32,870 nucleotides of DNA from positions 1 to 32,870 of the forward strand of contig OLMU01004592.1 in the NCBI GenBank assembly GCA_900291995.1, given 5' to 3'. Below the pieces are notes generated by a model. That model made no database searches. It had not been told where the DNA came from and saw only the letters and a list, made by a program, of their open reading frames with translations. Every line of letters starts with the position of its first letter. Positions within the stretch are counted from its first letter, which is position 1. This DNA comes from Licmophora abbreviata. Taxonomy: Eukaryota. This document shows, in pieces, positions 4,364 to 9,540 of the stretch. The translations under genes and the position numbers were made by a program.

Positions 4364-5117
4364 ATGGCAGCAGCAGCTCCTCCTCCTCAAACCTTTCCCT
4401 ATGATCATTTGTTTAAAATTCTCATCATTGGCGATGCGGGCGTAGGAAAAGTATGAACAAATGAACCAACCCAGCCGGCAATCAACAACGACTCGACTCG
4501 ACTCGACTCACCATGATGCTCCTGCCGTATTTTTATTTTTTCTTTCTCTCTAGTCTTCCATGCTCTTACGCTTTACTGACGACTCCTTCGACGAACACAT
4601 TCAAAGTACGATTGGCGTCGACTTCAAGGTCAAACACCTCGAGCTGCAGGGCAAACGCGTCAAGCTCACCGTCTGGGACACGGCCGGCCAGGAACGCTTT
4701 CGGACCTTGACGTCGAGCTACTATCGCGGCGCCCACGGTGTCGCGCTCGTATACGATGTCACTCGTCCCGAAACACTCACCAATCTTCAACAGTGGTTGA
4801 AGGAAGTTCAATTGTACTCTCCCAACAATGGGGAGAGTGTAGTCAAACTCTTGGTGGGGAACAAGATGGATTTGCAGCCTCAACGGGTGTCTAGAGAGGA
4901 GGGAGAAGCCTGGGCGCGGCAGCAGGGCATGTTGTTTCTAGAAGCTTCTGCTAAAACCAAACTCGGCATTCGACAAGTCTTTCTAGAAGTGGTGCAGAAG
5001 ATATTGCAGGATCCAGATCTACTTGCCACGACGACACCCGGTGGCAAGCCCAAATTGCAGTTGCGACCACAGTATCCGAGACCGACGTCCAGAGAAGATG
5101 ACAATGGGTGTTGTTAG
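4364..5117 (+). CDS. RAB18: Rab18 (RabC) small GTPase; 2 exons (4364-4450, 4554-5117)
   Basis: Splicing intron 4451-4553 (GTATGA..TAG, phase 0) restores the P-loop GDAGVGKSS. Motifs TIGVDFKVK, WDTAGQERFRTLTSSYYRGA (Rab18 signature), GNKMD, EASAK and C-terminal CC prenylation site. Confidence 0.93.
4490..4509 (+). repeat. (GACTC)4 microsatellite in the Rab18 intron
   Basis: GACTCGACTCGACTCGACTC running into CTCAC, a plausible branch point. Confidence 0.8.
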
Positions 5118-5278: not shown

Positions 5279-6522
5279 CTAAATGTCGGGCTCTTCATCT
5301 TCGTCGTCGTGAACGTAATCTACCTCGTCGTCATCGTCATCAAAGTCCAAATCATCCAGATCGTCGTCAACATCGAACAAATCTTCGTCGACATCCAGCT
5401 CACTCGGATCAATCTCATCCTTCTCTGCCTCTTCCGCCGCCGCCTCTATGGCTTGCATACTAATAGTGCCACTCTGCTTGTCACTAAACTGCTCGTAGCC
5501 GGTGAGCCGCTTTGACTTTTCATCCTTCTTACTAGCGGCCGCCGCTTCACTCTTTTTCGTCTTGCTGCCCTCCTGTTGTTCTGCCTTTTGTTCTTGCAGG
5601 AGCACCAATTGCGCCGCCTGTTCCGCATCAAACCTACGCTTCCAATCTTCAAAGTTCTCCTTGTTGCACGGCGTTCCCTCCGCGCGTCGTCGGCGCACCT
5701 CCAAGTCCTCTTGTTCCGTCTGCGTCATCTCTTCCTGCTGCTTTTGCGCCTCGAACTCTTGTTGCTTTTGAGTCTTTGGGAGAAACGAAACGCCAGAGTG
5801 TCAGTACAGGAAAGATATATACAAATGTAGCCAACATCGGATATTATCCCGGAGAGGTCACTGGTCGTCGTCGATTGAGCGCCTTGGCGGCGCTGCACGC
5901 AACCACCTATACAACCGGGATCTTGTTCCGTGCCAATAGATTTTTCTTGCACACATCATAAAGAAAGTATCATATGACCAATCGAAAGGTGCGAGGGGAC
6001 ATTTTCATAGATATACCGTGTGCTCATCGTCGTCGTCGTCGTCATAAACTCATACAATACGGTGCGGCCACTCTTGATACGTACCTCTTTTCGTTCCGCT
6101 TCTTGGGCACGTCGCATCATTTGGGCATGCATACTGGCATCATCGAGTCCCTTGACGTTGTGATCGACCAACCACTCTCGTAGTACCTCGCAAACTGCGA
6201 AAATTGCTGGCATGCCTGCGTTGTTTCGAGCCTCCTTTTGGGCGAGCTGGAGCAGCTCACCCTGATGGTCGTCCGTAAGGCCCTTGACGAGCTTGATTTC
6301 CAAATCCGGAAGACTGATTTCTGGATAATCGAGTGGGAGTGAACAGTGTAACTCGATCGTAACATGATTCTGTTCGTCGTGCTCTTCAGGATTGCAGTCC
6401 ACCGGTACTAACGTGACGCTCCATCGGAATGGCTGCGTATCCGAGACAATGTGAAAGGATGTATCGAAAATGGCCCCCAGGGCTTCCTGTTCCATCTCTT
6501 GTTCTTCGCAGTGATCAGACAT
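5279..6522 (-). CDS. RWDD1: RWD domain protein (RWDD1/Gir2/DFRP2-like); 2 exons (6522-6085, 5773-5279)
   Basis: MSDHCEEQEMEQEALGAIF, YPEISLP and GMPAIFAV are RWD-domain features; GTPCNKENFEDWKRRF and KRLTGYEQF match the DFRP C-terminal region; acidic tail. Intron 6084-5774 (GTACGT..AAG, 311 nt, phase 0) joins both ORFs in frame. Confidence 0.88.
5823..6023 (-). ncRNA. Candidate intron-encoded H/ACA-box snoRNA/scaRNA-like RNA (~201 nt)
   Basis: Minus strand. Hairpin 1 is closed by GCACAC/GTGTGC with inner TATC-TATGA/TCATA-T-GATA; then AGAAAA (H box ANANNA, 5947-5942); hairpin 2 has ATCCCGG/CCGGGAT, GGTTG/CGACC and AGCGCC/GGCGCT; then ACA-TTT (5828-5823). It lies in the only long intron of the window. 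Confidence 0.55.
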
Positions 6523-6789: not shown

Positions 6790-9540
6790 TTAGTTTCGCA
6801 AATGAGATGGGTGAATGTCCTCGGCGTATTGCAGAGAACGGAGCAAATCCGTTTCCAACGCCACAACGCCACACGCATCCGAGCAAAACATGGAATCAAA
6901 CCTTGGTTTTCGTTGGCAACCCTTGCGGGCGCATCTGGACATATCCACGGAGCCAGTATCAAGATGAGGAGCATGAGGGCCTGCAGTGCGGCCTATAGCG
7001 TTGCGCGCGGCATGGTGGTATCCATCTTGTTCGCGAGACGCACTTGAAGGACTGATGGGTTCCACATAGGACTTGGCCGGATCAATGTCCATTGTCGTGT
7101 CATCGCTGGGGTCAAATAGATTTCGTCGGGCCTTGGAAAATCCAGCTGCGATCTCTTTTCGGATGTCGTTTTGCAGGAACAGCGTCATGTTGTGGCGATC
7201 CGTGTAAGCTTCTGCAAGCAACAAAATAAAGCAGAGGGGCTGTTTCGTCAGGACACGAATACTCGCGCCGAGCTTCAGACTCCCTCGTCGCACGCACGCG
7301 AGCATACACACACACACATACCTGCATCTTCAACGGAAACTAGAAGACGTTCTAATTCACGTGTCCGAACCTTGGAGCGCTCTTTTGGGCGGAAACCAAA
7401 GCCCCTCCCTAGTTTCTGCGCCATTTCCGACCACTGTTTTTCGGCCTTGTCGTGCCGAGAATGTACACTGCGTGTGTGCCCTCCAATATGAGTCGCCGAA
7501 ACACTGCCCAATGGCCACTTGTATGTTCCACTGTGCTTGGCAAATGATGCCTGACGTATGACTGCAGATGTCTCCAGAGCGCGGCGAAGCTGTTCCGTTC
7601 TCTGACGCTCGAGTCGCGCCTTCCCGCGTGGGAATGGTTCTAGAATCTTCTGCTCTTCATGGCACTCGTCGCATATAGCAACGAAAGGCTTACCTTCCGT
7701 GATACATTCGCGCACAGAATATGGCTTGTAGTGCCCACCACAACTCGCATGTCTCCAGGTGCTGCAAACTGAGCAACACACCATAACGTCATTGCAGTAG
7801 CTCTCAGTTACCTGCCAGCAGAAGGCGTGATCCGGAGCGTTCCCACCTTTCTTGTTCCGCATATGTTGACGATGAATCCTGCAATGGGGTAGTTTCTCGA
7901 CTACACCAGGTTCAGCATTCTTTGTGAATCTCGTTCGAATTGACGCCATGTCAGCGCGGAAACGAGACCCCTCGGGGTGCAGAGAAGAGTTGGGAAAGTC
8001 GTCTTCGTCACTCTGTTCCCCGTGCATCCGACGCTCGCGGCGAATCGTCGTGATGGAAGGCCACCAAGTGTCGACCGGATAAGGGTACTCAACTGGGGCC
8101 ATTGGAGAGCTCAATGAGTTGGCCTTGGAAGTACGCTTCGGAGTTTCGTTAACATTAACCGCATCTTCGAACGGACCGGCATCTCCATGTAGGTGGGCCG
8201 CTTCATCATTGTCGGGGCCCCTGGCCTTCACCAGAGTCCCCGTCTCAAACATAGGCTCTTCCTGTAACGACGGAATCGAAGATTTGAAGTTTGGAAGTTC
8301 GATAACAAACGCAGCCGGGACGCTCATAACACTTTCTTCTCCTTCTTCTTCTCCCTCCCCCTCATCCTCCTCCTCCTCCTCCACGTCCGAGTCTGGCCAT
8401 ACAACACTCTTGAGGCCTGTCATGAGTGACGCGGCATTGTCGGCCTTCTGATCTTCAGCAGCTGCCTCCAGCAGGCCCTCTACCGTTCCGAGCTTGATCA
8501 GCTCTTCCACTGGAGACGGACTCCGGCTGGGAGGCGTCATCTCAAGTCGCTCCTCAGTGGCGCTCTGCAAAAGACCCTCAACTGCATCGCGATCGGACGA
8601 GTCGGCAATGGCGTTGAGCAGCGCCTGCCCTTCTTTCGCTGCCCTCTTCTTCTGCGCCATCTTGCTCCTGTTACGGCGAGGTTTTACGGGCAGAATGTCA
8701 CCCGAGGTACCGTCATGATACTGTGGAAAGTGCTGAAGAGTACCCTCTCGCTTGTAAAATTCCTCGCGAGAGATTGGGTCGTTTCGATGGATTTGAAGCT
8801 TGAATGTCGACAGATCGATTTCTTCTGGGCTTGGCCGCTTGAAGGAAGCATGATCAACGGTCGGTCGTGACCCAAAGGAACCTGGTGCATCTGGCATGAG
8901 CACGTCGTTCTCGTACTCACTGATCCCGGCGGCTCCTCCCATTGTCGGGGGAGGGACTCCGACGGAGGGTTTCGGCTGCTGAGGGAGCTGGCCGGCCTGA
9001 TGTTGTTGGAGCTGAAAGCGGCGCAGTTGCTCTTGTTGCTTTAAAAGCATTTGTTCTTCACGCTGCTGGTTGAGTATCATTTGCTCCTCCTGACGAAGAC
9101 CTGCCATGGTCTGATGACCAGATTGGGCGTACTGCTGGAGCTCGAACAGTCGCTGTTGTTGTTGCTGCTGTTGAAGCGACGTGGCGACGCCACCGAACAA
9201 ATTCTGTTGATCAAACTGATCTTGGAGTAGCAATTGACGAATTTGAAGATCACGCTGAAGGTTGCGCTGAAGATCGCGCTGGCGCTGTATATAAAGAGCT
9301 TCCTCCATTCCCATGGCGGCCTGCATACGCAAATTTTGCTGGCATAAATGGGAGAAATAGCAAAAAGGGAAATAACAAACGATGAGGTTGACGTTTGGCT
9401 CAGATAAATAGAACCAAGGAAAAAGATAACGGACGGGCCAGTTACCATCGGCTCGCGATCAGTCGGAGCACAGTACTCACCGCCTGCTGTCTCTGTTGTT
9501 GGCTCCCGGGCGTTTCATACGGGTTAAAACGATTGTCCAT
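6790..9540 (-). CDS. Nuclear protein with Gln-rich N-terminus, PHD-like finger and C-terminal Cfp1/Spp1-like C4 zinc motif; 3 exons (9540-9481, 9338-7322, 7211-6790), ~830 aa
   Basis: Introns 9480-9339 (GTGAGT..CAG, phase 0) and 7321-7212 (GTATGT..CAG, phase 1) give a continuous frame. PHD-like MVCCSVCSTWRHASC...ICDEC; C-terminal CARKGC...SMFCSDACG; polyQ, acidic tract and basic NLS-like KPRRNRSKMAQKKR. Confidence 0.75.
7306..7318. repeat. (AC)n microsatellite at the 5' end of intron 2 of the PHD gene
   Basis: ACACACACACACA directly adjacent to the GTATGT donor. Confidence 0.8.

Follow-up and report, generated by a model that had tools for sequence, protein, structure and literature searches.

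What does the unusually long intron of an RWD-domain gene in Licmophora abbreviata contain, and why has it stayed long? The intron measures 311 nucleotides (nt) and lies on contig OLMU01004592.1 (assembly GCA_900291995.1), of which positions 1 to 32,870 of the forward strand form the stretch analyzed here (the window). An earlier note had drawn in it, on the strand of the host gene, two hairpins separated by AGAAAA and followed by ACA, and had read them as an unannotated intronic box H/ACA RNA. Every element of that drawing is present where it had been placed, and comparison with related loci supports the proposal: we are highly confident that the intron encodes a box H/ACA small nucleolar RNA (snoRNA) on the host sense strand. 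In the explanation that best joins all observations, to which we give a probability of roughly 0.6, this snoRNA would guide the formation of a pseudouridine in helix 42 of 18S ribosomal RNA (rRNA). As far as sequence comparison can tell, it is an ordinary kind of gene, belonging to a family absent from Rfam and kept in one intron across diatoms.

The minimum free energy (MFE) fold of positions 6030-5815 reproduces the shape of the two-hairpin drawing, in the order hairpin, AGAAAA, hairpin, ACA, UUU. The parts of the element are as follows.

5823 to 6023 (read 6023-5823), minus strand: proposed mature H/ACA RNA, 201 nt; 5' end from the covarying closing stem of hairpin 1, 3' end predicted by the rule of three bases past ACA
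5949 to 6023, minus strand: hairpin 1, 75 nt, closing stem GCACAC/GUGUGC (MFE fold)
5942 to 5947, minus strand: H box AGAAAA (ANANNA), one base after hairpin 1
5831 to 5936, minus strand: hairpin 2, whole (MFE fold)
5928 to 5936, minus strand: 5' strand of the hairpin 2 lower stem, UUGGCACGG, pairing with 5840-5831 with one bulged A
5920 to 5925, minus strand: putative 5' guide strand of the pocket, CAAGAU (from conservation)
5848 to 5919, minus strand: upper part of hairpin 2, with stem CCCGG/CCGGG, internal loop, long stem and apical pentaloop (from covariation and folds)
5914-5908 and 5861-5858, minus strand: internal loop within the upper part, UUGUAUA/GUGA
5888-5884, minus strand: apical pentaloop GCCAA
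5843 to 5847, minus strand: putative 3' guide strand of the pocket, AUAAU (from conservation)
5831 to 5840, minus strand: 3' strand of the hairpin 2 lower stem, CCGAUGUUGG, 4 nt longer than in relatives (from the alignment)
5826 to 5828, minus strand: ACA box, invariant in 24/24 sequences, followed by UUU

Taken alone, the stability of this fold weighs against our reading and in favor of a chance fold in a long intron: its energy of -61.7 kcal/mol lies within the range of shuffled sequences (-55.6 +/- 4.2 kcal/mol, z -1.43), 17 of 200 shuffles being equally good, and the opposite strand gives z -0.40. Support above chance thus comes from conservation in relatives, and not from the fold energy of a single sequence.

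Such relatives were available at 62 metagenome loci from a contig scan, in 56 of which tblastn with both window exons located both exons. At 34 of these 56 loci an intron interrupts the gene at exactly the codon junction used in the window, and the element is present in 28 of the 34 (introns of 250-574 nt) and absent from six (L031, L034, L036, L037, L040 and L049), whose introns measure 82-131 nt. These six orthologous introns provide a better comparison for length than do the window's other introns. What makes the long introns longer is largely the element itself (∼185-250 nt), and several of these introns hold another 200-300 nt around it. The remaining 22 loci show no gap at the junction, and are mostly ∼1-kilobase contigs resembling transcripts, together with a distant intron-less group (L050-L053, L058, L059).

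Once five exact duplicates were dropped, 24 distinct sequences, the window's included, remained for comparison; for counts by lineage, the near-duplicates L010, L011, L013 and L030 were also dropped, leaving 20. In an alignment of the 24 sequences from the H box to three bases past ACA (alignment A2), the invariant letters are the A's of the H box, AAGAU, CCG.CAA.G, G.A.AAU and ACA. The first guide strand, CAAGAU, is thus invariant except for a nearly invariant C (L056 has AAAGAU), and the second, AUAAU, except for a nearly invariant U (L055 has AAAAU). An ANANNA motif stands one base past hairpin 1 in 18/20 lineages.

The stems covary. Of the 403 cells of the specified structure in alignment A2, 86.1% are paired, against 72.6% after column shuffling (0/500 shuffles); the covariation score is 0.441 against 0.201 for shuffled columns, and partners slid by 1-3 columns pair in 36-49% of cells. 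Alignment A3, fitted to the model and therefore biased toward the structure by construction, gives 87.7% against 72.9% (0/500). Pairing reaches 91% of cells at the base of the upper stem and 94% in the apical stem, where one pair is AU in 11 sequences and GC in 10. Because of the 4-nt insertion in the window, the lower stem is misaligned by MAFFT; in an alignment-free swap test over the 20 lineages, cognate strands score -5.48 kcal/mol and swapped ones -4.37 (39/5000 permutations). The closing stem of hairpin 1 behaves similarly, with a cognate score of 9.1 against 6.94 when swapped (0/5000 permutations, the search procedure being identical for both). Family members usually have a hairpin 1 of 59-82 nt, closed by G-C-A-N-G.../...C-N-U-G-C, and in 14/20 lineages the fold shows a hairpin that ends at the H box. 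Single-sequence folds of hairpin 2 recover the loop-stem-loop layout in most of the 20 lineages, including the window, with the first pairs of the upper stem left open by the MFE fold in four (L007, L009, L019, L054).

A covariance model of the family (R1), run on both strands of the window and the 62 loci (218,831 nt), returned 30 matches, all in this intron and on the sense strand of the gene, the window scoring 64.7 bits (E 2.5e-10). Among them is L042, which was outside the training set and whose sequence is identical to that of L038. The model found no match in the short-intron or intron-less loci.

A chance fold is hard to reconcile with conservation and covariation in 24 distinct sequences and with model matches limited to this intron. 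The same evidence bears on the idea that the segment is an unrecognized alternative coding exon, for which the reading frames were also inspected. The window intron carries stops in all three frames (1, 5 and 4) and is thus not coding-like; so do 33/35 of the intron sequences, and intron lengths are mostly not divisible by three. In the L019/L020 intron the frame of exon 1 runs on without a stop, the length of this intron, 395, not being a multiple of three; in the short intron of L036, frame 1 has no stop. Conservation, covariation, model specificity and stops together lead us to regard both the chance fold and the coding exon as already refuted.

The position of the element is equally constant. 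In a tree of the host protein (52 rows with exact duplicates dropped; quick maximum-likelihood search, with SH-aLRT support only), carriers of the RNA are found on all main branches, and the five distinct short-intron sequences (L037/L049 standing together) form one group, corresponding to one change with support 84, beside L055 with its already variant guide. Since R1 has no match anywhere else in the DNA available for the short-intron loci, the RNA has been lost or moved in this clade. The simplest reading of the tree, which is unrooted with respect to ancestry and comes from the quick search, is that the common ancestor of these diatoms already carried the RNA in this intron and that it was lost or moved once. 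Introns that house RNA genes are reported to hold their position (PMC3675471).

Retention of the element across diatoms, always in the same intron of the same gene, might also mean that it is a conserved cis-acting structure, which regulates how the RWD gene is spliced or expressed and does not leave the intron as a stable RNA. Nothing in such a role calls for an ANANNA motif one base past hairpin 1, for an invariant ACA after hairpin 2, or for a spacing of 14-15 nt between pocket and ACA, and in one clade a short intron that lacks the element is spliced out at this very site; we consider this explanation very improbable.

The layout hairpin-H box-hairpin-ACA on the host sense strand, with one RNA per intron and a translation-linked host, is shared with intron-encoded box H/ACA snoRNAs, from which the window RNA differs by its length (∼200 nt), its ∼105-nt 3' hairpin with an internal loop and a GNCAA pentaloop, and its absence from Rfam 15. 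In animals, H/ACA snoRNAs are usually intronic. The green alga Ostreococcus tauri is reported to have 72 intronic snoRNAs (PMC7671301). A survey of small RNAs in Phaeodactylum uses one snoRNA, and only as a reference for quantitative PCR (PMC4247016); our literature searches found no description or catalogue of diatom H/ACA snoRNAs. Two further points count against the assignment to this class. The first is that 2/20 lineages carry a G at position 6 of the H box. The second concerns Rfam, named in the earlier note as a check, where no family matched: the window gave nothing at the gathering thresholds, the window and 14 homologous loci gave only weak chance matches in E-value mode, and the H/ACA families, SNORA5 among them, gave no match at E up to 10 in the window or in 14 homologous loci. 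One of the low-scoring hits, to the C/D-box RNA snoU83D (17.5 bits, E 2.4), was rejected, as the RNA lacks the terminal-stem and C/D geometry.

If the RNA is a guide, which bases does it use? In the earlier drawing, the pocket of hairpin 2 was an internal loop AACAAG/AAUAU closed by AUCCCGG/CCGGGAU. We think that it is better drawn two bases wider, as CAAGAU/AUAAU, with the upper stem starting at CC/GG. In L054 the stem above the pocket reads ACGG/CCGU in place of CC/GG and the letters of the pocket are unchanged, a pattern expected if AU/AU is part of the guide rather than of the stem. Between the upper stem and ACA there are 14-15 nt in 17/20 lineages, 16 in L054 and 12 or 14 in L032. In active H/ACA pockets, the top of the loop stands 14-16 nt before the H or ACA box.

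Three observations on the pockets are less favorable to a working guide. First, the AU/AU letters can also pair with each other, as previously drawn, and because they never vary, covariation cannot choose between the two drawings. Second, the spacing in the window copy falls outside the range usual for active pockets. The earlier note had flagged it as a caveat at ∼17 nt; the concern is real, and the distance is in fact longer than was counted, 19 nt on the redrawn pocket. The excess results from a lower stem that is 3 base pairs (bp) longer and from two spacer bases, the guide strands being intact. Third, hairpin 1 shows no pocket sequence conserved across lineages, and therefore no conserved guide.

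The redrawn pocket predicts a substrate of the form 5'-AUUAU-U-N-AUCUUG-3'. We scanned for it 12 rRNA pieces, retrieved by a universal 18S primer scan and Rfam mapping from eukaryotic contaminant contigs in bacterial genome bins; they comprise four full 18S, all of them from organisms other than diatoms, together with 5.8S, one complete 28S and several incomplete ones. The only site with 10/11 contiguous pairs lies at 18S position 1551 of L077, a non-diatom, L082 being identical there. Its two halves provide 5+5 of the 11 pairs on either side of U-N, and it lies on the 3' strand of the hairpin directly before the conserved AACGAGGAAUUCC stretch. By a count on L086, the target U stands 78 nt ahead of the CCCGUC motif's first C; we take this C to be human Cm1703, which makes the target U1625. 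A pseudouridine, Psi1625, has been described at this position of human 18S and assigned to helix 42 (PMC10227372), and SNORA5C is listed as its guide, the SNORA5 family being assigned to 18S U1238 and U1625 (PMC10835520). The 3' strand of 18S helix 42, at the uridine matching human Psi1625, is in our judgment the likeliest, and a probable, substrate of the pocket.

The earlier note had found no convincing rRNA target and suggested that the RNA might be an orphan. This holds for the narrow pocket, CAAG/AAU, which was tried and set aside: its best rRNA site, at 18S ∼117, offers 3 + 4-6 pairs including wobbles, reaches 8 bp with only 12/24 guides and is near chance. The wider pocket does provide a candidate target, so that the RNA need not be an orphan. 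A conserved stretch of large-subunit rRNA complementary to both pocket strands was likewise rejected, the order of its two parts being wrong for an H/ACA pocket.

The helix 42 assignment has its own difficulties. The match amounts to 10 pairs of 11, not 11, and was obtained on the 18S of a non-diatom; the helix differs at the same place in other eukaryotes (L084, L079, L086, L080, L087); and the correspondence to U1625 depends on the numbering assumed above. In addition, shuffled guides find at least one comparable match in the 5,043 nt of rRNA in 125 of 2000 trials, so that the match taken alone is worth p ∼0.06, which is modest. It is strengthened by its place, on a uridine that corresponds to a reported human pseudouridine. 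Diatom 18S presumably carries the base that would complete all 11 pairs. None of the 23 contaminant contigs from the 18S primer scan is diatom-like at the target site, one further 18S 3' end is oomycete-like, and searches of viral contigs (one non-diatom 18S only) and of 401 Bacteroidota genomes found no diatom 18S. A full-text literature search for the target motif gave no match; a study of rRNA modification in Arabidopsis does not mention position 1625, a page number aside, in its main text and three supplements (PMC8351944), and nothing bearing on SNORA5 came from PMC6984369. As a side observation, seven contigs of one bacterial metagenome-assembled genome labelled Hyphomicrobiales (L063, L065, L072, L076, L077, L082 and L083) carry eukaryotic 18S/28S ribosomal DNA, which represents eukaryotic contamination of that bacterial record.

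The chance rate and the incomplete match on a foreign 18S leave room for an alternative that we hold to be less likely than helix 42 and still take seriously, namely that the RNA belongs to a genuine H/ACA ribonucleoprotein with another role. Its substrate might then be a different site in diatom rRNA, a spliceosomal small nuclear RNA or some other RNA, or it might act in the folding or processing of pre-rRNA without modifying it. The 19-nt spacing of the window pocket would fit such a role, as would the conserved C-GNCAA-G pentaloop and the internal loop 8-10 bp above the pocket, features that plain guides do not need. Against this, the helix 42 site is the only near-complete match among the rRNA pieces scanned and falls on a uridine reported as pseudouridylated in human 18S, and the invariant letters are exactly those of the two pocket strands, even where the adjoining stem changes (L054).

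Known H/ACA RNAs offer poor matches as well. snR30/U17 is an essential H/ACA snoRNA for 18S processing. It resembles the window RNA in its length of ∼200 nt and in having conserved strands on the internal loop of the 3' hairpin; in the window family, however, the distance of these strands from ACA is that of a pseudouridylation pocket. Exact copies of m1 or m2, as we take these motifs to read, occur in 0/20 sequences (best cases 1-4 mismatches), which agrees with their reported absence from the window. H/ACA small Cajal body-specific RNAs with CAB boxes have in common with it the H/ACA fold and a conserved apical loop, but the apical loop of hairpin 2 is GNCAA and not UGAG, and the window RNA contains no UGAG at all. 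Compared with human SNORA5 (ACA5), the predicted 18S helix 42 uridine is the same, by the numbering that we assume, and both RNAs are intronic. We detected no sequence or model similarity between the two, and no second-site pocket in hairpin 1 by eye, so that the window RNA would be a functional analogue of SNORA5 at most.

How would a snoRNA targeting helix 42 work? The mechanism proposed here draws on established knowledge of the H/ACA class, whereas architecture, boxes, conservation, covariation and fixed intron position are observed at this locus. Cbf5/dyskerin, Nop10 and Nhp2, then Gar1, would assemble on both hairpins during transcription of the RWD gene. The intron would be spliced out and debranched, and exonuclease trimming would leave a protected RNA of ∼200 nt with its 3' end three bases past ACA. 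The working pocket would be that of the 3' hairpin, where CAAGAU and AUAAU would pair with 5'-AUUAU-U-N-AUCUUG-3', leaving at the foot of the upper stem the central U that would become pseudouridine. The role of hairpin 1 appears to be chiefly structural, as the other half of the particle.

The upper half of hairpin 2 is more elaborate than this scheme demands. An asymmetric internal loop, GUAUC-like on the 5' side and YUGA-like on the 3' side, is retained there at 8-10 bp above the pocket, and the apical C-GNCAA-G pentaloop is invariant in 24/24 sequences. One could speculate, and we think it rather unlikely, that the GUAUC/YUGA loop and GNCAA form a conserved docking module with a second job beyond one pseudouridine, for example by recruiting a lineage-specific protein or by base-pairing to pre-rRNA while the 40S head is being assembled. 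The GNCAA loop may be the seat of Nhp2 or of a lineage-specific partner. Phage P22 has GACAA as its boxB pentaloop, and there it adopts a fold like that of a GNRA tetraloop; this resemblance is a lead only. If true, a docking module could explain why the RNA has been retained in the intron of a ribosome-associated gene (Gir2/RWDD1-type) across diatoms, and how the window copy survives with its off-register pocket.

The host gene and its intron are laid out as follows.

6085 to 6522, minus strand: exon 1, 146 codons from the ATG at 6522, RWD domain
5774 to 6084 (read 6084-5774), minus strand: phase-0 GT..AG intron, 311 nt, read from the sequence
5800 to 5804, minus strand: CUGAC, likely the branch point judging by its sequence, 18 nt beyond the proposed 3' end of the RNA
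5279 to 5773, minus strand: exon 2, acidic C-terminal half, stop at 5281-5279 (from the list of open reading frames)

Exon 1 matches the RWD family (Pfam PF05773, E 5.4e-20); exon 2, which tblastn located downstream in the related loci, encodes an acidic tail that matched no Pfam family. The protein has 68 homologues, all with an RWD domain and the best at 69% identity, and those that are named come from diatoms (Skeletonema, Thalassiosira, Cyclotella, Seminavis and others) and are annotated as RWD-domain proteins. By these matches the window derives from a diatom or a near relative that the protein collection itself does not include. Three public models of the homologous gene (P0001, P0017, P0066) appear to read into the snoRNA intron after the same codon (alignment A1), P0066 having ∼150 residues there that are absent from every other homologue. 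At L055-L057 and L058/L059 an extra gap, likely an intron, interrupts the part corresponding to exon 1, which is undivided in the window.

Just upstream of hairpin 1, the intron contains a short (GAC)n run (window 6030-6050, minus strand) that is not kept in homologues. Inside exon 2, a weak match to the DnaX ribosomal frameshift element (window 5530-5577, minus strand; 25.3 bits against a gathering threshold of 35, E 0.0034) covers an A-rich coding stretch and looks like chance. On the plus strand, positions 4554-5117 form an exon encoding a small GTPase of the Ras/Rab family (Pfam PF00071, E 3.6e-50), and the 3' end of this exon converges on that of the RWD gene. The upstream neighbor (window 7278-9458 and 6793-7329, both minus strand) includes a long open frame of 727 amino acids, glutamine-rich and with cysteine/histidine clusters near its end, which has no Pfam match at E 0.001.

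Diatom snoRNAs appear almost unannotated in the literature that we searched, and the intron described here adds one well-supported H/ACA family with a covariance model. Its predicted target in the 18S head (helix 42) would be one that diatoms have in common with humans, and it is testable. The family also accounts for several mis-predicted public proteins that read into this intron. More generally, the locus illustrates cleanly how an intron is held at its length and position by the RNA gene inside it, and has shrunk to 82-131 nt where that RNA is gone.

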